Source of the DNA: Chiloscyllium plagiosum
Lineage: Eukaryota
Length of the DNA stretch: 48,177 bases
Assembly (NCBI RefSeq): GCF_004010195.1
Contig: NC_057718.1
Span: 9,538,655 to 9,586,831, forward strand
Direction: 5' to 3'
The notes under the pieces were generated by a model that did not search any database, was not told the DNA's origin, and was given only the letters and a program-made list of their open reading frames with translations. Made by a program: the position numbers and the translations under genes. This document shows, in pieces, positions 3,165-48,177 of the stretch (positions are counted from its first letter, which is position 1; every line of letters starts with the position of its first letter).

Positions 3165-3319
3165 CTGACAGCACGGAGACGCAGCCAAGATGTCATAAGT
3201 GTACATGGTGCCCAGCTGATGCCAACTCCCGTCCCATCGAGACTTGCATTTGATGCAAATTATCTTATGTACCCCTTCGAGACAGTCCACGCAGATGGCA
3301 TAGAGGTGCATGAGCCTTC
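3165..3319 (-). CDS. HECA: Headcase homolog, coding exon 3 (155 bp)
   Basis: Acceptor tctgattacag|GA AGG CTC ATG. Encodes GRLMHLYAICVDCLEGVHKIICIKCKSRWDGSWHQLGTMYTYDILAASPCCQ. Donor CAG|gtgggt. The final exon (ARLNCKHCGK...) was not found in 1-3164. Confidence 0.96.
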
Positions 3320-4349
3320 CTGTAATCAGACCAAGGGCAAAGTTTGAGTCAGGTCCCACTTTTACTGATACAAGTTACAGCACAGACATTGTTACTTCTC
3401 AAAACTAGAAAACTACACTCGTATGTTATTTTTCTTTTAGAAGTACTCACAGGATATGGGCTTTGATGGCTAGGCCAGGCACTTAAAACTCATTCCTAAT
3501 TACCCAGAGGGCAGTAACATTGCTGTGGGACTGAAGTCACGCGTGGGCCAGACAGATAAGGATGGCAGATTTCCTTCCCTAAAGGCCATTAGTGAACCAG
3601 ATGCACAAACAGAAATTGCTGGAAAAGCTCAGCAGATCTGGCAGCATCTATAAAGAGAAATCAGAGTTAATGTTTCAGGTTGAGTGACTCTTCCTCAGAA
3701 CCAGAGGGGTTTTTAAGACAATTGTCCGAGTTTACATAATCACCATCAGGTTGGCTTTCTATTCCAAATATTTCTATTAAATTCAAATTTCACCGCTGGC
3801 TGTAGTGGGATTCTGGATTACTCATCTAGAACTCTAGTAACAGTGACTACAGTTCAAAACCAGAACAGCTCACAAACTGTCAATTGCTTTGGAAGATTCT
3901 GAGGTTTTGAAAGGTGTAATATGAATGCAAATCCTTCTTTCTAAATCAGTGTTGCAGACTGCCCTAAACAGCTGCTCTGTCTATCTCACTCTCCACCCAC
4001 CAACCCAGACTCAATACCTCATTTCCCGATGATTATAAAGATTCCCGGCTTCCCTTCTAAGGAGGAGGGAATGGTCACAACTCTGAAAGCCAAAACGGGG
4101 TTGATCTAAATTGAAGCCTGTGCAACAGTTTCTTCAGGGTATGGAGGGCTGAGGGTGGGAAGGAGTATAACCATGTCATGGCTGAGCCTTTCCTTGCTCT
4201 GCTCCCTGGGTTCGGGAAGTGCAAATTTCCTGGTGTGAGCTCATTTCAGACAAGACTACAGTTAGGAGCACTCTACCATTGCAAAATGATTGGGGGCAGG
4301 GCGGGGGGGGGGGGGCAGTCCAGACTGAGGAGATAAGGAGAACTGCTTA

Positions 4350-5919: not shown

Positions 5920-7075
5920 GTGACTGTAGCCTTTAAACAAATGTCCAACTTCAAACAGATCATTATTCGCAGCGAACTGCCTGGCTTTCAGGACAATACC
6001 ATACAACCTTGTCATGGTAGATGCTGCAAGACGTGTCAGAGTGTCGACACGGATACCACCATGACACATAGGAACACCTCCCACCATGTACTGGGCGGGT
6101 ACTCATGTGACTCGGCCAATGTTGTCGATCTCATACACTGCAGGCAAGGATGCCCAGAAGCATGATACATTGGTGAGACCGAGCAGAGGCTACGGCAACG
6201 GATGAATGGGCACCGCACAACAATCAACAGACAGGAGGGTTCCCTCCCAGTTGGAGAACACTTCAGCGGTCTGGGACATTCAACCTCAGACCGTCAGGTG
6301 ACCATCCTCCAAGGTGGACTTCCGGACAGTCAACAACGCAAAGTGGGCAAGCAGAGGCTGATAGCTAAGTTCAGTAACCATAGGGATGGCCTCAACTGGT
6401 ACCTTGGGTTCATGTCACATTACAGGTGACTCCATTGCACTACACACACAGAGACAGACAGACAGACACAGACACAGACACACACACACCCTCTCTCATA
6501 CACTCCCACACTCTCATCCATGCACGCATCCTCTCACAGACTTATACCTTTTACACTCACATTTACACACACTCTCACAGACAGTCATAACCACCTCCCC
6601 CCAACATGCACACACACATATGCAAGTTTGTGGGGTGAATTTGTACTTGTAGAATTACATTTTATTTTGCTCAAAAACTGTTTAAATCCATTTAAGATTC
6701 TGTAAATCCTTTTTTAGAATAGAATCAGTCTGAACATTGGGGCACAGACAGTCTCACACAGGACACTTCACACCTTCAATGCACTATCTGGGCTGACATG
6801 GCACCTATTGTTAAAGTTCACTTAAGAATGTAACTTTAAAGAAGTTCTTGAATTTACATATGAAAGAACTGAAACCAACATGTCCATTCTAAAAGATGAG
6901 AGACTTAACAAACAATTCAATATATAATTTCAGTTACATCACACTGCAAACGTTTGCTATAAATTCTGTGTCTTACAATCTTATACTCCATAACCACTGA
7001 TGAAGGAGCAGCGCTCCGAAAGCTAGTGCTTCCAACCTGTTGGGACTATAACCTGGTGTTGTGTGATTTTTAACA
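5920..7075 (+). mobile_element. Penelope-like element 3' part: Cys-rich linker, GIY-YIG endonuclease and 3' pLTR with hammerhead motif
   Basis: QPCHGRCCKTC...YSCDSANVVDLIHCRQGCPEA*YIGETEQRLRQRMNGHR...PVGEHF..GH...RLIAKF..HRDGLN. CTGATGA-A-GGAGC-agc-GCTCC-GAAA-GCTA at 6997-7025. Confidence 0.9.
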
Positions 7076-7254: not shown

Positions 7255-8335
7255 TTCTTCTGATCTTGCACTGGTCAGGACAATTCACAAGAATACCAAT
7301 TTATGCCTGAAAACAATTGGTTGGCATGTCAACTACGATTGGTAGTAGTAGCTTTGTCACAGAGAATTCCCTAGTTAATGACGCCTGCCAGGGTTTGCTT
7401 AAAGTTTAAGCCAGACCGGTCAATTCTTAATTTCTTTCAGAAATACCTCGACTGCTGAACCTGTGAATGACCGTCACCTACCTTGTTGAGTTGAAAGAGA
7501 TACAGTGCACGTACATGGCTTTTCTATCGCAAATAGCAGGACGCTGTGTATGAGTAAATGTAGACTCTGGTAGACACAACTGCACCATACTGCAAGCCCA
7601 ACTAACAATCCTAAATTGGTTGCCAACATAATCCATCACATACTCAGGATTATCCAGCAAATGCTGTCCAATTGCAGTGTTGTGACATTGTGCTGCCAGG
7701 TTTGCTAATGGAGACGGATTGGAGAGCAACAAGCAAGATGTGAACTGAATCCAACCAGCTGGTACTAGCAAAACCCACAACGCAGTGTCCAAAATTAACT
7801 ACGGCTCCACAATTGGACAGCAGCTGCTAGATAACCCCCGAGTGTGAAACATTACGCTGACAACTGATTTAGGCTCATCAGTCAGGTTCACACTGTGGCA
7901 CATACATTCATACACAGGGTCAAGTTCTTTATCAACAGATATAACATGTTTGCATTGATTTCAACTCAATAATGCAGGTAGCTACCATTCTCAGGTTCAT
8001 TGCCTTGGGGGTATGCTGATCAGAGTCAACCTGCCTGGTTTAAAATTTACGAGGAGAATGTGAGGACTGCAGATGCTGGAGATCAGAGCTGAAAATGTGT
8101 TGCTGGAAAAGCGCAAAAGCGCAGCAGGTCAGGCAGCATCCAAGAAGCAGGAGAATCGACGTTTCGGGCATGAGCCCTGGTTTAAAATTTAAACAAAGCC
8201 TAGCAGTTAACTGTCATTCATAAGTGACTGGTGCACTCTTTGTGGCCTGTACCAATCAGTACTCTCAACCCATACAGTAGAAATGCTGGAGTTCCCGTCA
8301 ACGTAGCATTCTTGTGACTTGCCTGATGAATGCAG
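7255..8335. mobile_element. Old inverted (palindromic) Penelope-like remnant
   Basis: Minus-strand TAIGQHLLDNPE...NQFRIVS (GIY-YIG C-terminal region) at about 7480-7690, mirrored on the plus strand at about 7805-7970. The ends are mutually inverted, with degenerate CTGATGA at about 8323. Confidence 0.7.
8051..8177 (-). mobile_element. Short Penelope pLTR-derived insertion (family A), 16-bp TSD
   Basis: Flanked by cctggtttaaaattta at 8034-8049 and 8176-8191. Partial hammerhead (GGGC..GCCC GAAACGTC). Confidence 0.85.
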
Positions 8336-10049
8336 AATGTAGATGGTCGATACAATGTGTTTCTCTTAAAAAAGAAAAACTTTTCAGGAAACGTCCTCCT
8401 CTGAGTCCTCATCCTGTCTGAATCCCTCCCAGTATTAGCTCTGCTCTCCCACCGTATCCGGTGGAACCCCACCTGTGCAGCCACACATCCTGCTACAAAC
8501 ATGGTGCAACTATAACAAACTGTGTGCATCGCTGGAATCCACAGCGGTGGTGCTGATAGAACACACACTATTCATATTGCCACTGCTTGAGAGTCATACC
8601 CGGCAAAAATAGCAGATTATCAGGGGCTGAGTTTCCCTTGTGTGTACAGACCACTCCCTGACAACAGCAAGCCGACTGAATAAAAGTAGGATAAAGTCAG
8701 ATATGGGTTTCCTACATGACAGCCATTTCAGTAGCGGCCGAGCACTTTGAGATGCACAATAGTCACAAACAGCATTATGTAAATATAAGACAATGCTTCA
8801 TGCTTCTCATTTTGCTAAAAATGCCCCTGCCTCTGGCTCAAATGCAACCCCCTCCCCTCACCAGTTCTGGCAAAGCAAAACCTCTTCACTGTCTGTTGAT
8901 ACAGAAGTGAGGGTAGAGTGGAACAGAGAGCGACAGAGAGAAAATGCACACACACAAGAGACAGAAATGTATAACGGAGGGGTGGGAGGAGGGAACAAAG
9001 TAAGAGAGAAAGAAGAAACATCATATATCACGTGTAGAACTTTTGAACCGGCTCAATTTTAGACACTTCATCTCCTCTGGACCACAAATGCTGGTATGGT
9101 TAGACTGGCAGCACAGTGGTACAAAGGGCTTTTATCAGTCACTGCCTCGTCAACACTGGCACAGTCTCCTCTCAACTCAGAGAGCTCCTTAACACAGCAG
9201 GCAGGAACAGAGAGACGCTCACAATGTCGTCAACACAGTGCACTCTAACCTAAATGACGCACACATGACTTCCTATAGGAGTTCCTCATCGGAAGGGAGG
9301 GTCAGAGCAAAACGCAAACCTGCCCCAGCAACTCAAACCGAGAAAGGGAATGATTCACAGCTTGCAGCCGTGGGTCACTGACTCTATCCGGTGTCACTCA
9401 GAGAGATCCGTTAGCAGGGTCCGCACTGAGCTCGGAGGTGAGGGCATGCCCTTCGTCCACCCCCTCCTGTGCTACACTGACAAAGTAACATCAACACAGG
9501 CGTCACAATCAATCCAATGGGAAACAGTAACAGTGAGCAACAAACCTGGTTCTCGCTTGTATGCAGTAAAGAGGGATTGCACAGGCTGTCAGGAGCTACT
9601 GGATGTCCCCACGTAAGAAAGAAGGAACTAGGATCTACCCCGGGGCTGATTATCACTTAGCCTGTCATAAAATGCTTCACGAATGAATAGCCCAGTTGCT
9701 TTTAATGCAAGTGAACGTGGCAAGCTTAAAAGGGCTTATGCCCGAAACGTCGATTCTCCTGTTCCCTGGATGCTGCCTGACCTGCTGCGCTTTTCCAGCA
9801 ACACATTTTCAGTTCTGATCTCCAGCATCTGCAGACCTCACTTTCTCCTTTCTTAGGAAGTGCCCATCCATGGCATTCAGTGCCCATTCCATTTGTCCTT
9901 GTGGCTTTCTAGGACACAGACAGTTAAGTCAACCAGGGAGATGGAGTCATGCACAGGTAAAACTTTGCACTCAAAGAAGGAAGGGGGAAACGATTAAAGT
10001 GCAGTTCAGTTAGTGAGGGGTTGCAGTCTCCTGTGTTCTAACAAAAACT

Positions 10050-10262
10050 AGAGCTGAAAATGTGTTGCTGGAAAAGCGCAGCAGGTCAAGCAGCATCCGA
10101 GGAGCAGGAAAATCGATGTTTTGGGCAAAAGCCCTTCATCAGAAATGCTTTTGCCCAAGACATCGATTTCCCTGCTCCTCGGATGCTGCCTGACCTACTG
10201 TGCTTTTCCAGCACCACTCTAATCTTGATTCGGATCTCCAGCATCTGCAATCCTCACTTTGT
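10050..10262. mobile_element. Palindromic Penelope pLTR-derived insertion (family A)
   Basis: Inverted arms meet at cccttcatcagaaatgcttttgccc. Related single-arm copies at 9729-9849 and 21134-21257. Confidence 0.8.
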
Positions 10263-10264
10263 TC

Positions 10265-10605
10265 TTTCTTATTCATGTTCCCATCCAGTTGCCTTGTATC
10301 TGTTGCAATTGTACCAGCGTTCACCACATCCTCTGGCAGCTCATTCCATGCACGCACCACTCTCTGCGTGAAAATGTTGCCCCTTAGGTCCCTTTTATAT
10401 TTTTCCCCTCTCACCTTTAACCTATGCCCTCTAGCTTTGGATTCCCCTACCCTGGAGAAAAGATCTTGTCTGTTTTATCATATGCATGCCCCTCATGATT
10501 TTATAAACCTCAATAAGGTCACCATTCAGCCTCTGATGCTCCAGGGAAAACAGCCCCAGCATATTCAGCCTCTTCCTGCAACCAATCCTGGCAACGTCCT
10601 TGTAA
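10265..10605 (-). mobile_element. CR1 LINE 3' fragment
   Basis: RGEKYKRDLRGNIFTQRVVRAWNELP. Confidence 0.85.
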
Positions 10606-18068: not shown

Positions 18069-19729
18069 TCTTCGGACTGGGGGAGGAAACCGGAGCACCC
18101 AGCGGAAACCCCCACAGACACGGGGAGAATGAGCAAAGTCCACACAGATAGTTGCCCGAGGTTAGAATCAAACCCAGGTCCCTGACGCTGTGAGGCAGCA
18201 GTGCTAACCACTGGGCCACCATGCACACAACACTGATACAGAATGTCAATAAGTGACTTCAACACAATATACACTGTGTTACTCACTGGCTAAATGGAAA
18301 ACAAAATCAGGATATGGTACACATTACAAATGGCCAGGTAACCAGCTGCAGTGTGCTGCTGATGTCTGAGAGTGATACCTAGCTGTCAATCCCTTAAGGA
18401 GAATGGCCTCCAGGCAGAGTTGCATATACTGCTCATTCCTCACTGCCCAGGGCAAGTGGTGGAGAATTCAACAAACAGATTGACTGCCTTGATGACTTCA
18501 GAGGATCATTAACACGACACAGAGTGTAAGAGCAGGGAGGTGATACTGGAACTCAATAAAACATTGGTTAGTCCACAGCTAGAGTACTGTTTGCAGTCCT
18601 GGAATCCATGTTATAGGAGGGATGTGATGGCACTGGAGAGGGTGCGGAGGAGATTTACCAGGATGCTGCCTAGGCTGGAAGGTTTCAGTTACGGAGTGAG
18701 GGCAGCCAAAGAACTGCCGATGTTGGAGAGCTGAAGCCAAAACAGAAATTGCTGGAGAAACTCATTAGGTCTGGCAGGACCCGAGAGAAGAAAACAGTGA
18801 AAGTTTAGAGTATAGTGACTCTTCACAAGAACTATACAAGGCTATAGGCCAAATGTTGGAAAATGGGATTACAATAATTAGCTGGTTGTTTTTGACCAGT
18901 AAGGATATAATGGGCCGAAGGGCCGTTTTCTTTGCTATAGATCTCTATGACTCTAATGTCAGAAATCCGAGCTGGACCAAACCATTTGAACCCTCATCTT
19001 GGCTCGGTTGGTGATAATAATAATGGCTGCTCTTCCATATTGGTAACACATTCCTGTTCTGTCTCCCAGACCCATTAAAGCACAAAACTTTCAGCCAACC
19101 TCCCTTGTGGTTATATTCAGTGACTGAACCTCTACAACTGTTTAGAGGCAGAGTGTTCCAAAGGTGTTCCGAATGCCTCTGTCAGGGAGAATTCCTCTTC
19201 AATTCAGAACTGATCAGGCAAATCTTCATTCTGACACTGTGGTCAGGATCCTACTAAAAGCCAAATGTTCTTGAACTGCAGCCACGCTTTAGCAGACTGG
19301 TGCAAACACCAGGTTTCATTCAGATTTTATGACAATCAACCATTCCCCAGACGTTTTGAGGCCAGCTTTTGTTCATTTCTGAAAAAGTGAAATCATGGTT
19401 CCGCCGGGGGGAGGAATTTGAAGAGTTAATCATTAAATTATTAATCCCCAAACTTAACCATGTCAACTCGGATTTACTTATAATCAGTTTCAGTAAGAAT
19501 GAGGAAGTTGGAGCAGTGAATGCTGTGGGGAAGTGGAGTTAAACACTACAGTTTCATTGCAACAGTGCAGTGACTTCTCCGTCCTTTCAACTGTATTGGC
19601 TTCTGGTCCAGCAATGCCTCAAATTTAAAGATTTCCTCCTGGTTTTCGCATCCTTCCATGGCCTCAACCTCTCCCTGGCTGTGTAATCTGTTCCAGCTTG
19701 AGATCTCTTCATTTCCTCCAATTTTTTTT

Positions 19730-21130: not shown

Positions 21131-21826
21131 GTTCCCTAATGAAGGGCTTTTGCCCGAAATGTCGACTCTGCTGCTCCTCAGATGCTGCCTGACCTGCTGT
21201 GCTTTTCCAGCGACACACACTCTCGACTCTGATCTCCAGCATCTGCAGTCCTCTTTGCCTGGAAATCCCCCCGCCTCATGAGGACCATGAGTGACCATAT
21301 ATGATTAGGACAGGTTTGGAGGGATATGGGCCAGGTGCGGCAGGTGGGGCTAAATGGGATTGGGATATCTGGGTTGGCATGGACAGGTTGGACCGAAGGG
21401 TCTGTTTCCATGCTGTACATCTCTATGACTCTATGACTACAACAGTACAAGGAGGCAGCTCAACACCACCTCCTGTAGGCAATTAGGGATGGGGCAGTAA
21501 TACCCAAACTCCATGAATGAAGAAAAAAATCACTTTGTGTGGCTCAATGTTATATTTTGCTTAAGGTGATTGTGGGAAACACTTTGGGACATTTTATTGT
21601 ATTAAAAGATGCTAAATCAACAGAAGCTGTTGAACACACAAAACACAAAACTGCAGATGGTGGAAATCGCAGACCAAAAAATAAAGCAGAAATTGCCAGA
21701 GGAACTCAGCAAGTCTGGCAACATCAGAGAAAGCAGAGCTAACGTTTCGGGTCCAGTGACCCTTCTTCAGAGTCTGGAACATTAACTGATCAGATCATCT
21801 CAACTCTCGTGATAAAGCAGCTCCAT

Positions 21827-23057: not shown

Positions 23058-23292
23058 AGGGGGAAAAGTGAGGACTGCAGATGCTGGAGATCAGAGTCGA
23101 GAGGGTAGTGCTGGAAAAGCACAACAGGTCAGGCAGCATCCGAGGAGCAGGAGAATCGATGTTTCTGGCATGATCTCTTTCAGAGCACAGGCAAGCCTCA
23201 TTCCTGATGAAGAGCTTATGCTCGAAATGTTGATTCTTCTGCTCCTCGGACGCTGCCTGACCAGCCATGCTTTTTCAGCGCAACACTCTCCG
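23058..23292. mobile_element. Palindromic Penelope pLTR-derived insertion (family A)
   Basis: Inverted arms with CTGATGAAGAGCTTATGCTCGAAA at about 23204. Confidence 0.8.
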
Positions 23293-23329
23293 TTCTGAAG
23301 AAGGGTCACTGGACCCTTCACTGCTTTTC

Positions 23330-23645
23330 TGATTAGATTAGATTCCCTACAGCGTGGAAACAGGCCCTTCGGTCCAAAAAGTCCACACCAGCCCTCCAAA
23401 GAGTAACCCACCCAGACCCATTTCCTTCTGAGTAATGCAACTAACACTATGAGCAATTTAGCTTGGCCAATTCACCTAACCTGCATATCTTTAGACTGTG
23501 GGAAGAAACCGGAGCACCCGGAGGAAACCCACGCAGACACAGGGAGAATGTGCAAACGCCACACAGACAGTAGCCAGAGGCTGGAATCAAACCTGGGACC
23601 CTGGTGCTGTGAGGCAGCAGTGCTAACCACTGAGCCACTGCGCCG
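23330..23645 (-). mobile_element. HE1-type V-SINE just downstream of the HECA exon 2 donor
   Basis: A/B boxes, V-domain and tail on the minus strand. Confidence 0.88.
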
Positions 23646-23749
23646 CTCTCCACAGATGCTGCCAGACCTGCTGAGTTTCTCTAGCAATTTCTGTGCTTGT
23701 TGCAATAGAAGGCTGTGCACAAAGGAAGCAGTGAACTGAACGGACCTAC

Positions 23750-24772
23750 CTTGGAGGTGACAAGGGACGTCATACTCAATCTCGTCATGTCTGGAAGGGC
23801 TGAGAAACAGAGTGCCGTCCACCAGTGGGAAGAGTTCAAAGACCGGCAGGACCTTGTGGCACAGCGCACAGTTCACCACGTTCCTCTGACTGGCGCTGAG
23901 CGCAGCCAGGATGAACTTCCTCAGCTCCTCACCCTGGCCAACCTGGGCATCGTCCTCCATGCGAACATGGTACGTGTTCATCTTGTGCTTGGGCACGTGG
24001 GTGAGCAGCTCAGAGAGGTCCAGGCGGCGCAGGAACTGCACCGGAGAGTCCAGGGCGCCCAGGCGGGGAGCCGCGGCACCCAACTCTGACTGGCTGTAAC
24101 GCCCGCCCCCGCTGGGCATCAGCTTGCGGCAGGGCTCCCCGTGAAGCGCCGTCTTGAGGAACTCGCCCAGGTGCCGGGAGCCACGGGGCCCGCCAGCGGA
24201 GAAGGAGAGGTAGGGGTGAGCCGGGGGCGGAGGGGACGGCTCAGGGGGGGAGCCGCACGGTGACCTGAAGTGCTCCTTGTGGCTGGGGGTCTGGACGCCA
24301 GCCGCCCCCTTCTCCTGAGAGTTCTGCCGATCGGTAGAGTGCCGCCGCTGGGCCTCGTGGGAGCGGGGCGCCCGGTTGAGCTTGCACTTCTTGCCCTCCT
24401 CGGGCAGCGGCTCGCCAGCCTTGGCGCCCACCTTCTTCTTCTTGTCGTCCTGCCTCCGCCGGGCCTGGTACCAGTCCACGTCCTTCTTCAAGTGGCCCTG
24501 GCCGCAGCGACAGGAGCAGAAGCGGAACGCCAGGTCGTAGCCCTTCTTGGTCCACATGTTCTGACGGCACTGCTTCTCGTTCCAGCTGCGGGCGCGGCCG
24601 ATGCAGTTGAACTGCACCAGGATGCTGCTCTCCCACTCGTAGAAGCACTGCAGGTGCATCCAGTTGCCAAACGGGCAGTGCTCGTTGTTGCAGACCACGC
24701 GCTGGTAATCGTCCTTCTCCAGCTCCACCGGCCTGCCAAAGCTGCACACCAGCGGCGAGGCGCACGAAGCCT
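23750..24772 (-). CDS. HECA: Headcase homolog, coding exon 2 (1023 bp)
   Basis: Acceptor gttgttccacag|AG GCT TCG TGC. Encodes CSFGRPVELEKDDYQRVVCNNEHC..WMHLQCFYEWESSILVQFNCIGRARSWNEKQCRQNMWTKKGYDLAFRFCSCRCGQGHLKKD and VQFLRRLDLSELL...FPLVDGTLFLSPSRHDEIEYDVPCHLQ. Donor CAA G|gtaggt. Phase 1-1. Confidence 0.97.
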
Positions 24773-24895
24773 CTGTGGAACAACAACAACAGGTGAGTAC
24801 TCATTACTGGATCCACAGCAGGGAATGTGGGGGATGCCCCATTATAGAACAACGCTCTATAACGGTACACGCATCAGGGTTCAAGAAGCTAAAGA

Positions 24896-25964: not shown

Positions 25965-26205
25965 CAAAATAAAGCAAAAGAACTGCGGATGCTGGAAACC
26001 TGAAACAAAATCCAATATTGCTGGTGAAACTCATGAGGTCTGGCAGCATCTGTGGAGAGAGAGAAAGCAGAGTTCATGTTACCAGTTGAGTGACCCTTGC
26101 GCGGACGAAGGGGTCCCTGGACTCAAAACGTTAACTCTGCTTTCTCTCCGCAGGTGCTGCCTGACCTGCAGAGTTTCTCCAGCAATTTCTGTTCTTGTTT
26201 CACAA
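25965..26205. mobile_element. Palindromic Penelope pLTR-derived insertion (family B)
   Basis: Inverted arms with degenerate hammerhead GGACGAAGGGGTCCCTGGACTCAAAACGTTAAC. Single arms at about 3605-3700, 18735-18830, 21640-21775 and 23648-23700. Confidence 0.75.
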
Positions 26206-30076: not shown

Positions 30077-30239
30077 CGTGATCGTTGCCTGTTTCCGACT
30101 GGCCCAAAGCAGCGCCTCCGGCCGCCGATCCTGCTGCTCCGGCCGACAAGGCGGCAGCTCCGGCCGCAGCCTCCTGCTCGTCTCCGCTGCTGTTGGTGCG
30201 CTTGTTTTTCCTGCCCTTGGCGTTCTTCTGGTTCGGCAT
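30077..30239 (-). CDS. HECA: Headcase homolog, coding exon 1
   Basis: ATG in context ggaccATGc. Encodes MPNQKNAKGRKNKRTNSSGDEQEAAAGAAA..., matching the vertebrate HECA N-terminus (MPNPKNSKGGRKNKRANSSGDEQE plus Ala/Gly-rich tract). Ends CAC G|gtgaga (phase 1). GC/CpG-rich. Confidence 0.95.
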
Positions 30240-30800: not shown

Positions 30801-30872
30801 TCAGTCAAACGGATGTCCAGAATGGGACCTCCCCCTATGTATAAAACGGACCAGGTAGGTAAACAAGGCATG

Positions 30873-31960
30873 CAATTTCCCTTCCCACGTGGTTAAAGAT
30901 GCCCTCCAACACATCTGGTCCACATCCCGCCCCTCCGCCCTCAAACCCCACCCCTCCAACAAGAACAGATCCTCCCCCCACCCCGTGTTAACCTTCCACC
31001 CAACCAACCTTCGCATAAACCACATCTCCTTTCCACCACCTCCAAACGGACCCCACCACCAGGGATGTATTTCCCTCTCCACCCCTTTCCGCCTTCCACA
31101 AAGACCTTTCCCTCCGTGACTACCTGGTCAGGTCCACACCTCCCAACAACCCACCCTCCCATCCTGGCTCCCATCCTGGCACCTTCCCCTGCCACCGCAG
31201 GAACTGCAAAACCTGTGCCCACACCTCCTCGGAGGAGAAAGTGAGGTCTGCAGATGCTGGAGATCAAAGTTGAAACTTTATTGCTGGAACAGCACAGCAG
31301 GTCAGGCAGCATCCAGGGAACAGGAGATTCGACGTTTCGGGCACAGGCCCTTCTTCAGGTCCTGAAGNNNNNNNNNNNNNNNNNNNNNNNNNNNNNNNNN
31401 NNNNNNNNNNNNNNNNNNNNNNNNNNNNNNNNNNNNNNNNNNNNNNNNNNNNNNNNNNNNNNNNNNNNNNNNNNNNNNNNNNNNNNNNNNNNNNNNNNNN
31501 NNNNNNNNNNNNNNNNNNNNNNNNNNNNNNNNNNNNNNNNNNNNNNNNNNNNNNNNNNNNNNNNNNNNNNNNNNNNNNNNNNNNNNNNNNNNNNNNNNNN
31601 NNNNNNNNNNNNNNNNNNNNNNNNNNNNNNNNNNNNNNNNNNNNNNNNNNNNNNNNNNNNNNNNNNNNNNNNNNNNNNNNNNNNNNNNNNNNNNNNNNNN
31701 NNNNNNNNNNNNNNTTGTACTCTTTGCTACCTTCCCCCACCCTCCTCTCTGACCTATCACCTCCATCCCCACCCCCATTCATCTATTGTACCCTATGCTA
31801 CTTTGTCCCCACTCCTGCCACCCTTTCATTTATCTCTCCACCCTGCAGGCACCCTGCCTCTATTCCTGATGAAGGGCTTTTGCCCGAAACGTCGATTTTC
31901 CTGCTCCTCTGATGCTGCCTGACCTGCTGTGCTTTTCCAGCACCACTCTAATCTAGACTA
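30873..31960 (+). mobile_element. Penelope-like element (family A) inserted in the HECA promoter, 16-bp TSD
   Basis: Flanked by aggtaaacaaggcatg at 30857-30872 and 31961-31976. ORF remnant PVLTFHPTNLRINHI..SLRDYLVRS..PGTFPCHRRNCKTCAH. Inverted pLTR at 31231-31367. Intact hammerhead at 31866-31893. Confidence 0.9.
31368..31714. other. Assembly gap (N run)
   Basis: 347 N bases. Confidence 1.
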
Positions 31961-32315
31961 AGGTAAACAAGGCATGTTTCACAGACAGCAGGCTTCTGGT
32001 CTGAGCATGTTTTCAACAGGTGGTTGCATTTTACGCCAACTATTCTCTGATACATCCACCCCGATGGATTTAGTTCAGTAAGGCACATTTTTAACGCTAT
32101 GCTTCCTTCGTAAAATTGAGGGAAATATATCCTTCAATGTCGGCATAAAGTGCAAGGCATATAGGTTTCTAACAATACAGTATGATCCTCACTACGTTTA
32201 CAATAATGTTTATTATTTGACATACTCATTAGATGTTCAACATACATTCTAAAGCATTTAGCACAATTTCATTAAAAATCCCACAGTATACAAGCAGGCC
32301 ATTCAGCTCAACAAG

Positions 32316-32497
32316 ATTAGAGTGGTGCTGGAAAAGAATAGCAGGTCAGGCAGCATCCGACAATCAGGAAAATCGATGTTTTGGGCAAAAGCTCTTCATC
32401 AGAAATGCTCATGGATGCTGCCTGACCTGCTGTGCATTTCCAGCACTACTCCAATCTTGACTCTAATCTCCAGCGTCTGCAGTACCCACTTTCACCT
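32316..32497. mobile_element. Palindromic family A insertion within an HE1 SINE tail, 15-bp TSD
   Basis: attcagctcaacaag at 32301-32315 and 32498-32512. The host SINE continues to about 32788 (minus). Confidence 0.85.
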
Positions 32498-33038
32498 ATT
32501 CAGCTCAACAAGTCCACCCAGACCTACCCCACCCGTTACCCTGCATTTCCCATGACTTATGGATTTAGCCTGCACATCCCTGGACACTAGAGGGCAATTT
32601 AATATGGTAAATTCACCTGAACTGCACATCTTTGGATTGTGTGAGGAAACCAGAGCACCCAGAGAAAAACCACACAGACAGGGGGAGGATGTACAAATTC
32701 CACACAGAGAGTCACCCAAGACTGGAATTAAACTGGGTCTCTGGCACTGGGAGGCAGCAGAGCTAACCACTGAGCCACCATGCCACCCTTTTCCAGCCCA
32801 TCTATACTCTAAAGAACCTTAGATAGTGTTCTTTCCACATTGCCCCTTTGGAGCACTGGCCCCAAGCTCAGTGCATCCCCCGATACATTTTTCTAGGCCT
32901 TGGACTGTGCTAGTGTGCAACACTCCGAAATCACAGGCTGTATGTTCCAGAGAAGATTGGACATAAAATGTAAATATACATTGTTAATGTAACCTGTTGT
33001 GGTAAGTGTAGTAAGGGACTTAATGCACTGTCATTTTA

Positions 33039-33317
33039 GATTAGATTACTTACAGCGTGGAAACAGGCCCTTCAGCCCAACCAGTCCACACTGACCCTCC
33101 GATGAGTAACCCACCCAGACCCATTTCCCTCTGACTAATGCACCTAACACTATAGGCAGTTTACCATGGCCAATTCACCTGACCTGCACATCTTTGGACT
33201 GTGGGAGGAAACCCACGCAGACACAGAGAGAATAGGCAAACTCCACGCAGACAGTCACCCAAGGTTGGAATTGAACCTGGGACCCTGGTGCTGTGAGGCA
33301 GCAGTGCTAACCACTGA
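33039..33317 (-). mobile_element. HE1-type V-SINE
   Basis: V-domain and tail on the minus strand. Confidence 0.88.
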
Positions 33318-33618
33318 GACAAGTCAGTATTGCACTATATGTGTTTCTTTATTCTTTTATTGAATGTGGACCGTGCTGGTAAGGCCAGCATTTGTTGCCT
33401 GTCCCAAACAATACTTCAAGTGAATGACTTGCTAGGCCATTTCACAGGACAGTTAGGAATCAGTCACGTTGCTTTGGATCTGGAGTCACGTGTAGGCCAG
33501 ACCAGATGAGGACGGCAGATTTTCTTTTCCGAAAGGACATTAGTGGAACCAATTGGATTTTTACAAGAATTGACAACAATTTCCTGGTTACCATCAAACT
33601 AGGCTTTAATTCCAGATT

Positions 33619-33717
33619 CTGGATCAGTGGTGCTGGAAGAGCACAGCAATTCAGGCAGCATCCAACGAGCAGCGAAATCGACGTTTCGGGCAAAAGCCCT
33701 TCATCAGGAATAAAGGC
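33619..33717 (-). mobile_element. Family A pLTR insertion with intact hammerhead motif, 13-bp TSD
   Basis: ttaattccagatt at 33606-33618 and 33718-33730. Minus strand reads ttcCTGATGAAGGGCTTTTGCCCGAAACGTCga. Confidence 0.85.
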
Positions 33718-34066
33718 TTAATTCCAGATTTATTAATTGAATTCAAGTTTCTAACAATTCAGCATGTTGCTCACTGCATTTACTGCCAAGGTGAGATTCA
33801 AACCTGGACAATTGACCCAGGTATCTGGTTCACTAATGCAGTAATGTTACCACATTGGCACTGCCTCCCTCATTGTCAAGGGAAATAAATTGAAGTTGAA
33901 ATATTTTGTAACATACTTTTACAAATTTAATGAAGTCCATATACTTTGGGGAAAGGAATGTGTCTTTCTGAGCTGCAAAAGTAAACAAATTTGGGACAAA
34001 ACCCTGAAATGTGAACTGGTTCTCTCTCTACAGATGTGTTGAATATTTCCAATATTTTCAGTTTTT

Positions 34067-34175
34067 ATGGATGTAGGTTTGCTCGCTGAGCTGCAAGGTT
34101 CATTTTCATTTGAAAATGAACCTTCCAGCTCAGAGAGCAAACCTACATCCAGAGCCTCAACCTGAGCTACAAATC
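34067..34175. mobile_element. Family C mini-palindrome nested in a family B copy, 10-bp TSD
   Basis: Hairpin tggatgtaggtttgctcgctgagctg...cagctcagagagcaaacctacatcca. ttcagttttt at 34057-34066 and 34176-34185. Confidence 0.8.
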
Positions 34176-34712
34176 TTCAGTTTTTGTTTCAGGTGTACAT
34201 TACACATTTTTCTTCTGTCAAAAAGCTACAGCAATGGATCTCAACACACATACACATAGGAGTATTTAAACAGCACTTTTACTGGAATGTCAGGCTTGTG
34301 AGGAAAGTGGATTTTTTAGGGTTGGTGGAGAGTACAATATATGAAGAATAGTCTTACAATCCCTGCAGGGAGCAGATTTGCCAAAACAGCCCCACTGAAG
34401 AAATTACGATTCCTCTTCTGTAAAGTGAATGAGAACAGACACAACTTGCACAAGAATTAACAAATAATAATTCAAATGTTCACTTTACATTTTCAACAAA
34501 ACAATATCTTATGCAATGACAAGATTTATATATAGCATTCTGTAAGTCCACAGGATGCTGCTCTTTATTCAGTTTCCACCTCAAAGTTTCACGAATACAA
34601 TTCTTTTCATAGAATCCCTACAGTGTAGAAACAGGCCATTTGGCCCAACAACTCCACACCAACCCTCTGAAGAGTATCCCACCCAGCCCCATTCCCTATT
34701 ACTCTACATTTG

Positions 34713-35457
34713 GAAGTGGCTAATCTGTGAAGTGTGATGTTATTGGTTGGTTCCTTGGAAAGAAATGCTGAAAAAGACTGTTGTGACCTGAGGGAGAGAG
34801 CGTTCACAGAAATGATGTGGGTGGCACAGTGGCTCAGTGGTTAGCACTGCTGCCTCACAGTGCCAGGGACCCAGGTTCAATTCCAGCCTTGGGTGACTGT
34901 CTGTGTGGAGTTTGCACATTCTCCCTGTGTCTGCGTGGGTTTCCTCTGGATGCTCTGGTTTCCTCCTACAGTCCAAAGATGTGCAGGTTAGGTGAATTGG
35001 CCATGCTAAATTGCCCATAGTGTTAGGTGCTTTAGTCAGAGGGAAATGAGTCTGGATGGGTTTCTCTCTGGAGGGTCGGTGTGGACTGGTTGTGTCGAAG
35101 GGCCTGTTTCCACACTGTAGGTAATCTAATCTAATGTCCCTGACTAATGCATCTAACCTGAACACTATGGGCAATTTAGCATGGCCAATTCACCTAACCT
35201 GCACAACTTTGGACTGTGCGAAGAAACCCACGCAGACACGGGAAGAAAGTGAAAACTCCACACAAACAGTCACCCGAGGGCGGAATCGAATCCAGGTCTC
35301 TGACACAGTGAGGTAGCAGTGCTAACCACTGAGCCAACATATCACCCACATCATTTCTGTGAACTCACTCTCCCTCAGGTCACAACAGCCCACAGAGCGG
35401 AGCTTTTCAGCATTCCTTTCCAACCAATAACATCACACTTCACAGATTGGCCACTTC
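34713..35457. repeat. About 750-bp imperfect palindrome: non-SINE flank plus HE1 SINE duplicated in inverted orientation
   Basis: 34713-34817 and 35346-35457 are reverse complements outside the SINE. SINE copies at 34818-35133 (+) and 35136-35345 (-). Confidence 0.85.
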
Positions 35458-35617
35458 TAGATAAACACCCAACTCTTCAAGGTGATCACATAACTTTCCA
35501 GACCTGAGACTTTTTTAATTTAGCTCACAGAATACTTTCAAGGGTCCTGTCTCCTTTTCCACCAAATAGGAAAAGCCGATCTCTTCCTGAGAATGATTTG
35601 CGTTCTCTCCTCACAAG

Positions 35618-36150
35618 ATTAGATTAGATTCCCTACAGTGTGGAAACAGGCCCTTCAGCCCAACCAGTCCAGACTGACCCTCCGAAGAGTAACCCTATTT
35701 CCCTTTGACTAATGCACCTGACACTATGAGGAGAAAGTGAGGTCTGCAGATGCTGGAGATCAGAGCTGAAAATGTGTTGCTGGAAAAGCGCAGCAGGTCA
35801 GGCAGCATCCAGGGAACAGGAGAATCGACGTTTCGGGCATAACCCCTTCTTCCTGAAGAAGGGCTTATGCCCGAAACGTCGATTCTCCTGTTCCCTGGAT
35901 GCTGCCTGACCTGCTGCGCTTTTCCAGCAACACATTTTCAGCACCTGACACTATGGGCAATTTAGCACAGCCAATTCACCTAACCTGCACATCTGTGGAC
36001 TGTGGGAGGAAACTGGAGCACTCGGAGGAAACCCAAGCAGACACGGGGAGAATGTGCAAACTCCACACAGACAGTCGCCCAAGACTGGAATTGAACCTGG
36101 GTCCCTGGCACTGTGAGGCAGCAGTGCTAACCGCTGAGCCACCGTGCTAC
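35618..36150 (-). mobile_element. HE1 SINE interrupted by a young palindromic family A element (35729-35940), 15-bp TSD
   Basis: gcacctgacactatg at 35714-35728 and 35941-35955. Near-perfect inverted arms of about 88 bp. Hammerhead CTGAAGA-A-GGGC-TTAT-GCCC-GAAA-CGTC at 35853-35880. Confidence 0.92.
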
Positions 36151-38664
36151 CCCAAGTATTCTCTCTGTTTCTATTTCTATGTATTGGAGTGCTTCACCTT
36201 TGTGTACAATCCTTAGGAGCATAGGAACAGGAGTAGACCATTCAGCCCCACATGTCCATTCCACCATTCAATTAAATTATGACTGATCTATGGCCTAACT
36301 CCATATATATGCTTTGACCTATATCTCTTAATATCTTTGCTTAACAACAATTTATCTATTTCAGATTTAAAATTAATAACTGATCCAGCATCCACTGTCA
36401 TTTGTGGAAGAGAGTTCTGAACATCTAAAACTCTTTGTGTGTAGAAGTGCTTCCTAACATCTCTCCTGAATGGTCTGGCCTTAATTTTCAGACTATGCCC
36501 CAGTGGAATTGTTTATCTTTATCTACCCTGTCTTTTCCTGTTACATCCCAATGACTGAGGAAATTTCCCAGGCATTTTATGCAGAATCAATTGTGTGCCA
36601 TCCCCATACAGTCCCAAAGCAGAACTCCAATCTAATCCTCATAAACGACTTACCTCCCTATTGGAATTTCTGTGCCACGATCATTGTGACTGAGACCAGC
36701 TTTCAATTCCAGATCTTGAATTGAATTTAAATTAAATTTCACGTGCTATCATGCTGGGAGTGGAACTCCTGTCGCTGGAACATTAATTAGTGTGGGCCCC
36801 TAGATTTCCAATTTTGTGTTATGATCAGGATCCCACCACCTCCCCACAGCAAGTATTTAGTAAACCAAATGTTACATTGACATTTAATGCACGGATTTGG
36901 AGTACGAGTCTTGCTATCATTAAACAGTAGTTTGGTGGGACAGCATCGAGGTACAGGTTTGTTCTCATTGCCTAAAGAAGGATATCTTTCACCTAAAGGG
37001 GCTACAGATTGATTTTTGGGATGAAATACTGACTGAATAGAATGGACCTGTTCTCTCGGGAGCTTTGACGAATGAGAAACAATCTCATTGAGACGTTCAA
37101 GATCAGAGGGCTTAACAGGTTATCATTATATATCTTGTCTTTTCCTGTTAATATCTTGAAGACTATGATCAGATCACCACTTCCTTTATAAATTCTAGAG
37201 AAAACAGGCCTAATTTGTATAATCTCTCTTCATAATTTAACCTCTTAAATCCAGGTATCATTCTTATACACCTACACTGTACTCCCTACAAAGCCAATAT
37301 ATCCTTCCTATGGTGTGGTGCCCAGATTTGTACACAGTGCTCCGACCCTCTAACCAGGGTTTTGTATGACCGCAGCATAACTTCGGCATTCTTATCCTCC
37401 AGTCTTCTGGATAAAAAGGGCAGCATTCCATTAGCTTTCTTCATCATTTTTCTGCACCTGTTTATGACATTTTACATATCTATGCACCTCAGTCTCTTTG
37501 AATATCCACTGTATTTAACTTCATGCCATCTAGAAAGTTCCCCGATTCATCCTTTTTTGGTCCAAAATGGATGACCTCACACTTATTTACATTGAACTCT
37601 AACTGTCACAGTTTTGCCCAATCACATAGTCTATCAATATCCCTTTGTAATTTTATGCTATTGTCTACACTGTCTGCAATATCACCTAACTTTGTGCCTT
37701 CATCAAAGTCATTAATAAGTCATTTTAATCCTCTGAGGAAAAACAGTTTGGAGTCATACAGCACGAAAATAGGCCCTTCGGCCAGACTCGTCCCTACTGA
37801 CCAGATTTCCTAAACATAACTAGTCCCACTTGGCTAATTTACTCCAAATCGCTCAACATCTTTCCCATCTATATAAGTGTCCAAATGTCTTTTAAATGTT
37901 GTATATGTACCCACCCCTACCACTTCCTCTGATAACTTGTTCTGTATACGCAATGTGTGAAAACGTTGCCCCTAAGGTCCCTTTTAAATCTTTCCCCTCT
38001 CATCTTAAACCTATGGCCTCTGGTTTGGACTTCCTCCTCCTGGAGAAAGGACTTTGGCTCTTCACCTTATAGGTGATTTTAATTAATTCTTCTCATTTCT
38101 GTCCCAAAAGGGCAATCCTATTTTTTAAACTCACCCATAAAAGTAAACATTATTTTCTTCCGTAGCTTGGTCAAGACCATTCAGAATCTTATACATTTTA
38201 ATTAGGTCACCTCTCACTCATTCAAACTCTAGTGAAAACAGGCACAGTCTGTCTATTGTTTCCTCATGACATCACCCACTCAACCTCACAACCGCAGAAA
38301 GCAGTTTACCATCAATTACTTTTGCAGTTTTATCCCTGTCCCAGTGTAGGAAATCTATTACACAGCACGCTGTCACAGACAGCAGTGTCAGCAAGTTAAT
38401 CTGTGGGAGAAATGTTGGTTAGATTACATTAGATTAGGTTAGGTTTTATTGTCACTTATACTGAAGTACAGAGAACAGTGAAAAGTTTACAACGTCATCA
38501 CTCACGGCACCATCTTGGATTAAAACAAGTATAAAATAAAGAAATAATTTAGAAGTTCGACATTACAGTTCTTCTCAGTGTAAAGGAATAAATAAGGAAT
38601 AAAGTTGAAGTTCCAAATCACAGTCCTTCTATAGCTGGGCTTCCTCGTGAGGCCTTGATCTCTC

Positions 38665-41544: not shown

Positions 41545-43172
41545 TCAGGAAAAAGAGAATATTGTAAAGGAGAAGACAGAGGTACGAGATATTAGATTAG
41601 AAAGGATCAAGGTTATTTACAAACAGGTGTCATCAATTCTGGAAGGAGTCCCCTGAGCCGAATGGGATTTATCCGAGGATTCTCTGGGAAGCAAGGGAGG
41701 AGATAGCAGAGCCTTTGGCTTTGATATTTGAGTCATCATTGTCTACAAGTTTAGTACCAGAGGACTGGAGGATTGCAAATGTTGTGCCCTGTTCAAGAAG
41801 GGCAGTAGAGATGACCCAGGTTACAGACCAGTGAGCCTTACTTCAGTTGTAGGAAAGGTTTTGGAAAGGATTATAAGAGATAAGATTTATAATTATCTAG
41901 CAAGCAACAATTTGATTTCAGATAGTCAACATGGTTTCGTCAAGGGCAGGTTGTGCCTCTCAAACTTTATTGAGTTTTTTGAGAAGGTGACCAAGCATGT
42001 AGATGAGGGTAGAGTAGTTGACATGGTATACATGGACTTCAGTAAAGCCTTTGATAAGGTTCCACACAGTAGGCTGTTGGAGAAAATGCAGAGGCATGGA
42101 ATTGAGGGTGATTTAGTAGTTTGGATAAGAAACTGGCAAACTGAAAGAAGGCAGCGAGTGGTGGTTGATATAAACTATTCAGCCTGGAGTCTGGTTACTA
42201 GTGGTGTGCCACAAGGATCTCTTTTGGGACCACTGCTGTTTGTCATTTTTATAAATGACTTAGACGCAGGCATAGGTGGATGGATTAGCAAATTAGCGGA
42301 GGTCACTAAAGTCGGTGGAGTAGTGGACAGTTTGGAAGAATGTTACAGGTTGCAGGGGGACTTGGATAAACTGCAGAATTGGGCTGAGAGGTGGTAAATG
42401 GAGTTCAATGCAGCTATATGTGAGGTGATGCACTTTGGGAAGAATAACAGGAAGGCAGAGTACTGGTCAATGGAAAGATTCTTGATAGTGTGGATGTGCA
42501 GAGGGATCTTGGAGTCCATGTACATAGATCCCTGAAAGTTGCCACCCAGGTGGATAGTGCTGTTAAGAAGGCATACGGTGTGTTAGATTTCATTGGTAGA
42601 GGGATTGAGTTCCGGAACCGCAATATCATGCTGCAACTATACAAAACACCAGTGTGGCCGCACTTGGAATATTGTGTATAGTTCTGGTCCCCATATTTCA
42701 GGAAGGATGTGGAAGCATTGGAAAAGGTGCAGAGGAGATTTACCAGGATGTTGCCGGGTCTGGAGGGAAGGTCTTATGAGGAAAGACTGAGAGACTTGGG
42801 TCTGTTCTCATTGGAAAGAAGAAGGCTAAAAGGGGATTTGATGGAGACATACAAAATGATCAGAGGATTAGATAGGGTAGACAGTGAAAGTCTTTTTCCT
42901 AGGATGATGACGTCAGCTTGTACAAGGGGCCATAACTACAAATTGAGGGGTGATAGATTTAAGACAGATGTCAGAGGCAGGTTCTTTATGCAGAGAGTGG
43001 TAAGGGTGTAGTTAACTCAGCCACATTAGGGAGATTTAAACAATCCTTAGATAAGCACATGGATGATGATGGGATAGTGTAGGGGGATAAGCTGAGAATA
43101 GTTCACAGGTTGGTGCAACATCAAGGGCCGAAGGGCCTGTTCTGCGCTGTATTGTTCTATGTTCCATGTTCT
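41545..43172 (+). mobile_element. 5'-truncated CR1 LINE (RT domain to 3' tail), defective
   Basis: RPVSLTSVVGKVLE..SQHGF..YMDFSKAFDKVPH..SGVPQGSLLGPLLF.IFINDL. The catalytic FADD motif is decayed to LAEV, with a stop at about 42395. Tail of (gttctat)n. Confidence 0.95.
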
Positions 43173-44200: not shown

Positions 44201-45176
44201 AGCTGCCTCAGTTGTAATCGCACCATCCATTTCAGCTCACTTCCAAGGTAAAGAGACTCTCTTCTTTTCAAAATAGGCTTGAAGTAATTAAAATTTCTGC
44301 TGGAATCCAGATAACTCTTTTTTTTATTATTATTATTACACTCCTAATAACTTTCTACCAGACCATAGGACTACTCTCTCATTAAAGAGAGACAACTGAT
44401 AGTTGTTTAAGCTGAGGGTCACTGTGCCTCAGGTGAAGGGAGAGATTGAGAAGGAGAATACTTGACAGTGAGCTCAGCTGGCGTAAACTTTGAACGCACA
44501 TTGTTAGTGTCACTCTGCATCAGCTGTCCAGGCAACTGAGCTATACCGACCCCCCTCCTACCAATGCTGTACTGTCCCTGATACTGTTTCAATTCCTTTC
44601 CTTTATTTGAAAAGATATTCAAAAAAACTTCACTTCTTTTCCACCAGCTATATCGCAGCACTCCAGTTTGGGATTAACAATAATTCCTCATTCTAAGATA
44701 ATATTGTTAGACTCCTTTTCTTAGGAATGCTGACAACACATGTTACTCCATCAAAAGACCTCTCAGCACTTTGACTAGGAGAAAGTGAGGACTGCAGATG
44801 CTGGAGATCAGGGTCGAGAGCGTGGTGCCAGAAAAGCACCCGATGAAGGGCTTATACTCAAAACGTCGATCCTCCTGCTCCTCACATGCTGCCTGACCTG
44901 CTGTGCTTTTCCAGCTTTTCTTGACTCTCAGCATTTCGAACCTTGATGCATGCTTTTCTGAAGACTGCCTTCCTAGCACAGACCGAGAAATGAAAGTCAT
45001 ATCTGGAAAGTTATCCCAGTAGCCCTGTGGGTAGTCTCAGTAGTAACTCTGGGTAACTTCGTTCTTACTTGGAATTGTTTTGTGGTTTTTGGAAGGTGAT
45101 TACTAACGTGAAACACAGAAAATTGTCTATGTTTAACTTAGAATTCCTAGAGCCCAAATTTGCAGCAAATAACATT

Positions 45177-46606: not shown

Positions 46607-48177
46607 GGTCTTTTTGCAGCAGAGAGCAGCAGGAGCTGGGTGGAAGTGAAGTCGGAGCGCAAAGCCGGTCGGGAAGGTAAGTGATTGTTATTAGAGTGGG
46701 TGTGTTCTAGACCCCAGGTCCTATAAAGTAGGGCCTCCCTCCCTCCCTCCTCCTCTAACCTAAATTAAGAGTCCACAGACTTGCCCCAAAAAGAGGGTCA
46801 AAGGAAGTTCCAGTGGATTGAAGAGTGAGGCTTTAGCTCAGGAGTCTTTGACAAGGAGGTTGAGTTAAGTGATTACGCCACAGTTGAAGAGGGTGAAGAC
46901 ATGACTGCCCAGCTGGTTCAGTGTGCTACGTGCTTGATGTGGGAGGTCAACGACTCTGGTGTGTCTGGCTCGTATAAGTGTGGAAAATGTGTGCACGTTC
47001 AGCTACTGACAGAGCATATTGCAGCATTGATGAAAGAACTCGAGGACCTTAGGCCCATCCGAGAGAACGAGATCTTTCTGGACAAGACCTTCAGCGAGGT
47101 TATTACACCAATCAGAGCAGAAGAGAGCAGACGATGAGGAAGGTAGAGAGAAGACAGGTGCAAGAGACCCCGGGGGAAGTACCTGTCAGGAACAAGTTGA
47201 ATCTTTTGGAAACAGTAGAGACAGATGACACTGCCAGTCCGCGAGGCGGCCAGGTCTATCAATCAAACGTTGGCGCAGAGGCAGAGCGGAAGAGTCGGAC
47301 ATCGCACAGAGCCGTGGTAATAGGGGACTCCGTAGTGAGAGGAACTGACCGGGGTTGTTGTGACAGCAGACGGGACTTAAGGATGGTGTGTTGCCTTCCT
47401 GGTGCCAGGGTTAAAGACATCACAGACAGAGTGCAGGAAATCCTCAAGGACAAAGGTGAAGAGCCAGAGGTGGTGGTACATGTCGGCACAAATGATGTCA
47501 GGAAGAAGAGGAGGATCATACTACAGCGGGACTTCTGAGAACTAGGAAGAAGGCTGAAAAGCAGGATGTCCAAGGTGGTTTTCTCCAGTTTGCTTCCAGT
47601 TCCTCGGGTGGTGAGGCCAGGAACAGGGAGATAATGGACTTGAACGTGTGGCTGGGGAACTGGTGCAGGAAGCAAGGATTTAAATTCTTGGATCACTGGG
47701 GTATGTTTTGTGGTAAGCATAAATTCTACAAGAGAGATGGTTTGCACCTTAATAGGTTAGGGACCAGCATTCTGGCAGGCAGGTTTGCTACTGCAACACA
47801 GCTACGTTTAAACTAAGTAGCGTGGGGGAGGGGATGAACTGGATGTTTAAGAAGGAAATTGAAGGGAAAGTTAGAACAAGGGAAGTCAAGAAAGATGACT
47901 GTATCAATGAGGCAGAAAACTCGGAAAGGGATCATGCTGTAAGGTTGAGTGAAATAGGAGTTGATGGGAAAGGTGAGGGCAGTAACAAATTAAAAATACT
48001 ATACATGAATGCACGAAGCATTAGACATAAGATGGATGAGCTTGAGGCTCTTTTGGAAATTGGCAGATACGATATTGTGGGGATAACGGAGACGTGGCTT
48101 CAAGTGGACAGGGCCTGGGAAATGAATATTCAAGATTACACGTGCTATCGTAAGGACAGACTGACAGGCAGAGGGGG
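46607..48177 (+). mobile_element. CR1 LINE 5' portion: 5'UTR, disrupted ORF1 (46901-47816) and ORF2 start (47834 to window end)
   Basis: ORF1 has CATC...CGKC zinc finger and leucine zipper, plus SGNH esterase motifs VIGDS, CCLPGAR, VHVGTND and DGLHLN, with frameshifts and a stop at 47536. ORF2 APE motifs LYMNARSI..K..EL and YDIVGITETWL are open to the end of the window. Confidence 0.95.

Follow-up and report, generated by a model that had tools for sequence, protein, structure and literature searches.

A palindromic, hammerhead-bearing insert in a Chiloscyllium plagiosum SINE as a probable doubly 5'-truncated insertion of a Penelope-like element

How did a palindrome carrying a minimal hammerhead ribozyme core come to lie inside a shark SINE, and is it a mobile unit in its own right or the stump of a larger element? 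The locus lies in a 48,177-nt stretch of Chiloscyllium plagiosum DNA, referred to here as the window, and had been read in a preliminary description as one copy of a SINE-like, non-autonomous, ribozyme-bearing family mobilised by a Penelope protein. The anatomy given there was confirmed by repeat search and SINE alignment: the insert (35729-35940) is 212 bp long with near-perfect inverted arms, lies between exact 15-bp direct repeats, and has arms (35765-35852 and 35855-35942) of 88 nt each that stand two bases apart and are 99% complementary, with one mismatch. The region of the target 15-mer is single-copy in 5/5 aligned paralogous SINE copies (5 of 16-17 window matches), so the 212 bp plus one repeat constitute an insertion. 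The host SINE is presumably HE1, a V-SINE of sharks and rays. Arm positions below are numbered with core C3 as +1, which places the cut site at +29, and some end positions were read by eye.

35614-36160, plus strand: host SINE (HE1-like) split by the insert, with 16-17 window copies (alignment)
35714-35728, plus strand: left target-site duplication, 15 bp, an exact repeat that is single in 5/5 paralogous SINEs
35729-35764, minus strand: 36-nt 'tail' present on the long arm only, its outer end being the long 3' end, +126 from core C3
35765-35852, minus strand: inverted arm, terminal repeat of a Penelope-like element (PLE) from +3 onward, without C3-U4 and hence with an incomplete minus-strand core
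35850-35940, plus strand: sense arm, covering about -2 to +88 of the PLE terminal repeat, with the short 3' end, by arm positions
35853-35880, plus strand: minimal type I hammerhead core with CUGANGA, extra A, 4-bp stem II, GAAA and ACGU palindrome
35941-35955, plus strand: right target-site duplication, 15 bp, an exact repeat

The two arms overlap by 3 nt (35850-35852). The hammerhead core, with its short stem II and ACGU palindrome, is present as first described, and its C17 is at 35880. The core boxes, the extra base before stem II, G10.1-C11.1, the palindromic 15.2-16.2 and NUH were all found in the focal copy, and the extra nucleotide between 9 and 10.1, the G10.1-C11.1 pair, the palindromic 15.2-16.2 and the missing helix III are shared with the minimal hammerheads of metazoan PLEs (PMC4209133), for which no shark example was found in the text consulted. 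Stem II of the shark motif is 4 bp; helix I has 3 bp flanking a U-U mismatch across the shark family and is cut to 2 bp in the focal copy, short of the 4-5 bp of a minimal type I hammerhead. An Rfam search of the focal insert returned no hammerhead match and only sub-threshold miRNA-like hairpin matches.

In folding computations, the full focal RNA formed one hairpin (-181.4 kcal/mol) in which the probability of stem II was 0.0, and a ribozyme-compatible fold cost 41.5 kcal/mol, for which reason the focal copy is unlikely to self-cleave: the predicted hairpin excludes the active fold, helix I is reduced to 2 bp, and the minus strand is without C3-U4. For a published minimal hammerhead, the monomer did not cut and dimers cut weakly (PMC4209133). 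A complete core is kept in only 4 of the 16 arms at the 11 window loci, with decay often at CpG sites.

Eleven loci of the insert family were placed in the window by BLAST, matching the earlier count of about eleven related copies; they comprise 16 arms and 1,700 bp (3.5% of the window). The target-site duplications claimed for four other copies are all exact, at 8034/8176 (16 bp), 30857/31961 (16 bp), 32301/32498 (15 bp) and 33606/33718 (13 bp), and a random control yielded an exact flanking repeat of at least 13 bp in 0/19,683 boundary pairs. At 6/11 loci no duplication of at least 10 bp was found, one of these six having its right end in an N gap. The ten loci beside the focal insert are as follows.

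8034-8191, minus strand: single-arm copy, +8 to +126, 16-bp duplication (alignment, repeat search)
9730-9849, plus strand: single-arm copy, +7 to +126, no duplication found, 118/120 identical to the focal long arm
10050-10266, no single strand: two-armed copy, short arm minus and long arm plus, no duplication found (alignment)
21133-21257, plus strand: decayed single-arm copy, about -2 to +116 (arm alignment)
23062-23298, no single strand: decayed two-armed copy, long arm minus and short arm plus (arm alignment)
30857-31976, plus strand: 5'-truncated PLE insertion of about 1.1 kb, 16-bp duplication (coding match, repeat search)
31233-31367, minus strand: young-type copy nested in the PLE coding piece, 0 to +126, with a second arm running from 31360 into an N gap
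32301-32512, no single strand: two-armed copy, 15-bp duplication, short arm from about -9 and long arm from about +41
33606-33730, minus strand: single-arm copy, -9 to about +88, 13-bp duplication, complete core (alignment, repeat search)
44777-44924, no single strand: decayed two-armed copy, long arm from about +64 and short arm from 0

Several of these copies have features of their own. The arm of the 8034-8191 copy contains an 8-bp internal tandem duplication. Between +78 and +95 the arms of 10050-10266 show differences of the subfamily type, as if two RNA molecules had been templates, and no duplication was found there to confirm a single insertion event. The copy at 31233-31367 is a young mini-copy inserted inside an older PLE's coding piece, and the 347-N gap that swallows its second arm may have arisen where assembly failed at the hairpin.

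The link to an autonomous element comes from the 30857/31961 insert, which consists of a frameshifted coding piece (30874-31232), then the N gap, a C-rich 3' region (31715-31865), a hammerhead at 31866 and a short end at 31960, joining the terminal repeat to RT/GIY-YIG coding sequence within one duplication-bounded insert, by a join that spans the 347-N gap. The family had been characterised as ORF-less units of 100-230 bp, a description that fits the mini-copies and fails for this insert of about 1.1 kb with PLE coding sequence. With P0001 the coding piece shares 73-75% identity (E 5e-42; 82% over a 73-aa query), and the protein closest to this piece is named from a bamboo shark. P0001 contains RT motifs, a C-x4-C-x2-C linker also found in the window coding piece, and a weak GIY-YIG match; in longer relatives, RVT_1 and GIY-YIG were both detected in 4/4 scanned at E<=0.01. 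Such a linker fits Neptune or Nematis (PMC8557442), and the PLE clades reported in vertebrates are Neptune and Poseidon (bioRxiv 10.64898/2026.07.22.740005). A full-length pLTR-ORF-pLTR or partial tandem master was absent from the window. The coding link and the core features support the proposed PLE origin with a minimal type I hammerhead, and the same link, with the domain matches in the relatives, supports mobilisation by a Penelope RT/GIY-YIG protein. A second, different PLE fragment lies at 5926-7075 on the plus strand, with a decayed linker and GIY-YIG piece (5926-6396) from which a gap-free stretch of about 600 bp leads to a minimal hammerhead at 6997 in which AGCU replaces ACGU; no duplication was found around this fragment.

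Comparison of the 16 arms revealed two 3' ends, nine long and seven short. Seven of the long ends are at +125/126 and two decayed ones at +116 to +121, and the short ends are spread over about +76 to +95, with the focal copy at +88. A long end is paired with a short end in 5/5 two-armed inserts, which leaves the focal copy with a 36-38-nt tail, and the centres of these five inserts all differ (+3/-2, about -7/+6 to +11, +1/-9 to -20, -9/+41, and +64/0). From this pairing and the differing centres, the palindrome was probably assembled at insertion. The 10050 and 32316 inserts have about 15 nt in common around the short arm's 5' edge, a stretch that could reflect common descent from one palindromic donor and may equally be the subfamily's native upstream sequence.

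The 5' ends are clustered at the edge of the hammerhead: 13/16 arms begin between -20 and +11 relative to the first base of the core, and only 1/11 loci retains more than about 20 nt upstream of the hammerhead. Ends defined by the cut site were rejected, as 0/16 arms start at +29 plus or minus 5. Counting one arm per locus, 8/11 5' ends fall within 21 nt, for which exponential truncation gave P of about 1e-4 with a mean of 107 nt, as fitted, and 0.01 with 40 nt, the most favourable of the means tried; the breakpoints are non-random, as the proposal of a family had implied, and do not follow length-random 5' truncation. The coordinate of the stop is shared by long-start and short-start arms, which makes it positional. 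In the literature searched, which lay outside subscription journals, supplements, Repbase and Dfam, no description was found of 5'-end clustering at the hammerhead edge or of the shark stumps. A pyrimidine motif at -3 that resembles an initiator, and a stretch partly matching the downstream promoter element of Drosophila, were considered and set aside as too loose to count.

The focal insert is best explained, and with good probability, as a doubly 5'-truncated insertion of an endonuclease-bearing PLE with a Neptune-type linker, its palindrome having been assembled at insertion. A staggered target cut by the PLE protein would have produced the 15-bp duplication, and reverse transcription would have been primed on both target strands, starting internally at two sites, about +88 and about +126 downstream of hammerhead C3. 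Both cDNAs would then have stopped just upstream of, or in, the hammerhead 5' box, and would have been joined head to head via the 3-nt overlap, a mechanism of joining that we infer. A palindrome made anew at each insertion would be a dead end, and the hammerhead would be a passenger of the PLE terminal repeat. As for the reason for the stop, the preferred reading, given about an even chance, is run-off of the reverse transcriptase at the RNA 5' end, synthesis having started on the 5' terminal-repeat copy of the element's own mRNA.

The duplication, the arm geometry, the two 3' ends, the differing centres, the 5'-end clustering and the gap-spanning coding link are observations from this window. 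Two-strand cutting with extension, internal starts and the use of uncleaved RNA as substrate come from published work on other PLEs. PLEs have been described with a neighbouring inverted copy, truncated at its 5' end, and with a tail of 30-40 bp at one end (PMC8557442, PMC3846280, PMC8969392); the tail and inverted truncated arm of the focal insert match this signature, which is one ground for reading it as a PLE insertion. Insertions of endonuclease-bearing PLEs (PMC8557442, PMC3846280, PMC11167929) share with it the head-to-head terminal repeats, the one-sided tail, the junction palindrome, the duplication and, some 120 nt downstream of the hammerhead, an internal start; on the C3 scale, the published start would be at about +120 to +127, matching +126 here. 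The shark insert differs from those units in having arms of only 90-125 nt and no ORF, in its duplications of 13-16 bp versus the 8-10 bp described for rotifer copies, and in 5' ends that cluster at the hammerhead edge, which were not found described in the accessible text of those papers. The element type itself is already known: solo and opposite-strand minimal hammerheads have been ascribed to truncated PLEs (PMC4209133), and de novo PLE insertions in Chlamydomonas have a median length of 128 bp (PMC9977147).

Two considerations favour run-off. In D. virilis, 46 bp separate the PLE start site from a downstream intron (PMC2377424), and the 3' end of that intron has been placed at helix I (PMC4209133). 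The Anolis protein requires 172 nt of ORF sequence, which lies beyond its start site, and the sequence beyond the start would be offered in full by a single element only at the 5' repeat. Counting against the proposed mechanism, the 5' ends are tighter than length-random truncation would make them, a pattern that a fixed short template would also give.

For comparison outside the shark, public metagenomes were scanned with a core pattern, producing at least 133 motifs in at least 127 public loci (at least 123 stretches), 80 loci having full flanks. With this core pattern, position 17 was not G in 132/133 motifs listed. Helix I, which lies outside the pattern, had at least 3 Watson-Crick pairs in 26/37 clusters listed (shuffle mean 5.4, maximum 15), and its pairing was found in 8 sequence types among the motifs listed. 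Judged by sequence, the hammerhead motif is real as a class. A PLE C-terminus was located upstream on the same strand for 29/128 motifs listed, 26 of them within 66-147 nt, and a search for an ORF start downstream of the hammerhead gave a PLE match in 1/128 motifs listed, which was C-terminal. Duplications of at least 10 bp were found at 25/93 non-redundant sites with enough flank (22 loci, among the matches listed; control mean 2.9, maximum 7). The duplication-bounded inserts listed comprise 10 single-arm inserts of 87-154 bp, with the 5' edge at -3 to -29, and 5 inverted pairs of 237-417 bp, and in the three inverted pairs called from both arms a long end was again paired with a short end. 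The single-arm and inverted-pair architecture is, on this sequence comparison, not special to the shark genome.

In the largest metagenome cluster, 10/19 motifs continue upstream for over 60 nt, 5 end sooner and 4 meet the end of their contig, so that 5'-end clustering is weaker there. No metagenome locus listed resembles the shark sequence over at least 45 nt, and these loci therefore serve as an architectural comparison only. A family-specific DNA pattern gave 0 matches in metagenome contigs, and a relaxed core pattern gave 0 matches in viral contigs and 5 in genome contigs, the latter entering only the motif comparison and the search for neighbouring PLE coding sequence. Hammerheads of the animal PLE type occur in two contigs of a bacterial MAG (L124 and L126), in one of them immediately downstream of a PLE ORF; both contigs are probably host DNA in a bacterial bin.

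The alternative that survives best concerns the reason for the stop, and overlaps the last step of the preferred explanation: the reverse transcriptase could have met a barrier formed by a bound protein, a dimerised hammerhead or the upstream C-rich stretch. Protein assistance of the Anolis hammerhead speaks for it, as do the C-rich upstream sequence in this shark family and the reading-through of some copies (31715-31865, and in the metagenome). Stem II is only 4 bp, however, and the 10 duplication-bounded single-arm inserts listed from the metagenome stop at -3 to -29 with upstream sequence that is not C-rich, leaving the barrier a possible but rather doubtful cause.

A short, ORF-less single-arm RNA (the hammerhead plus about 130-170 nt), transcribed from solo copies, perhaps by a promoter inside the terminal repeat, and trans-mobilised by the PLE protein, would also account for the 13/16 arms starting within -20 to +11 and for the 10/11 loci without anything further upstream, the palindrome still being built at insertion. 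The D. virilis terminal repeat holds a promoter (PMC2377424), and non-autonomous PLEs and trans-mobilisation are on record (PMC8557442, PMC3846280, PMC9977147). The arms, however, are 74-97% identical to the focal long arm and represent several sequence types, one of them ORF-linked, and the cores decay, often at CpG sites, with 4/16 complete. Solo stumps end at +88 or +126 and, going by the Anolis requirement, may be without the binding site. The Chlamys non-autonomous PLEs (MRC1, Chlamys-N4; PMC8557442, PMC9977147) resemble the shark copies in their short de novo insertions and carry the autonomous partner's 3' end; as described there, they have their own internal sequence and are without canonical hammerheads, whereas the shark stumps show no private internal sequence. 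Such a short RNA is an unlikely source of the inserts.

The reading closest to the preliminary description, a family in which entire palindromic units with a functional ribozyme are transcribed and mobilised again, is very improbable. Several palindromes are of similar size and two have about 15 nt near their centres in common, but 5/5 centres differ, 0/16 arms start at the cut site, helix I is 2 bp, and the 88-bp hairpin (-181.4 kcal/mol) would block the ribozyme. A self-propagating palindromic family is left unsupported by the five differing centres, the two-start tail signature, the PLE-coding link and the hairpin that excludes the ribozyme fold. From the proposal of a SINE-like, ribozyme-bearing, non-autonomous family there remain the PLE origin, the mobilising protein and the non-random breakpoints.

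Non-LTR retrozymes, tandem hammerhead repeats processed to circles and re-inserted, have a type I hammerhead, a PLE terminal-repeat origin and longer duplications in common with the shark units, and are recorded as ORF-less, hammerhead-bearing, PLE-terminal-repeat-derived elements in one cartilaginous fish (PMC7229834; bioRxiv 10.64898/2026.07.22.740005). There they are tandem head-to-tail with an average of 363 bp, whereas the shark units are inverted or solo with a minimal core, show head-to-tail repeats at 0/11 loci and do not span cut site to cut site, so this origin is scarcely credible. A MITE or foldback DNA transposon, suggested by inverted arms and a duplication, can be dismissed with near certainty: the arms are asymmetric by the 36-nt tail, single-arm copies are also duplicated, the duplication is 13-16 bp, and the sequence is a PLE end.

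The focal arms differ at 1/88 bases, the 9730 copy matches at 118/120 positions, and the focal duplication is exact. This arm identity, near-identical copy and exact duplication support a young focal insertion, and the recent activity proposed for this copy stands on them. Identity of other arms to the focal long arm ranges over 74-97% (several sequence types), at 74-86% for most. Hairpin-driven homogenisation could inflate arm identity as a measure of age.

The insert family shares the window with a gene, headcase (HECA), exons of which were identified as follows.

23472-24800, minus strand: headcase (HECA) exon (Pfam)
within 3102-3374, minus strand: headcase (HECA) exon (Pfam)

We take about 30077-30239 on the minus strand to be the likely first coding exon of HECA, starting at 30239, which puts the focal insert some 5.5 kb upstream of the gene; an intron contains five of the family loci. 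Of 24 sequencing-run entries listed, 20 contain part of 33000-38500, and no RNA run is among those containing it. A third hammerhead-bearing family with a longer stem II is present at 3607-3699, 18739-18824, 21660-21790, 23294-23316, 23655-23693 and 25983-26191, with a complete core at 21770 on the minus strand and a head-to-head pair at 26017-26191. A near-perfect palindrome at 34068-34151 (41-nt arms, 95%) is unrelated to the focal insert family by BLAST. Decayed RT and esterase-like ORF1 pieces at 41732-43011 and 47053-47816 are, we assume, LINE-like.

Little is yet understood of how PLEs transpose or of what the hammerhead contributes; the stumps offer sharp coordinates for both ends of the process, since starts lie at about +88 and +126 and stops between about -20 and +11, with not one at the cut site, +29. 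We put forward tentatively, with somewhat less than even confidence, that a pair of start sites, a pair of templates and a single fixed stop upstream of an uncleaved ribozyme are a read-out of the PLE mechanism. If true, an unsolved mechanism would be naturally legible in thousands of genomic stumps, and if the stumps are run-off products, their 5' ends would mark where the template's 5' end lies. The family also supplies many perfect or near-perfect hairpins in introns.
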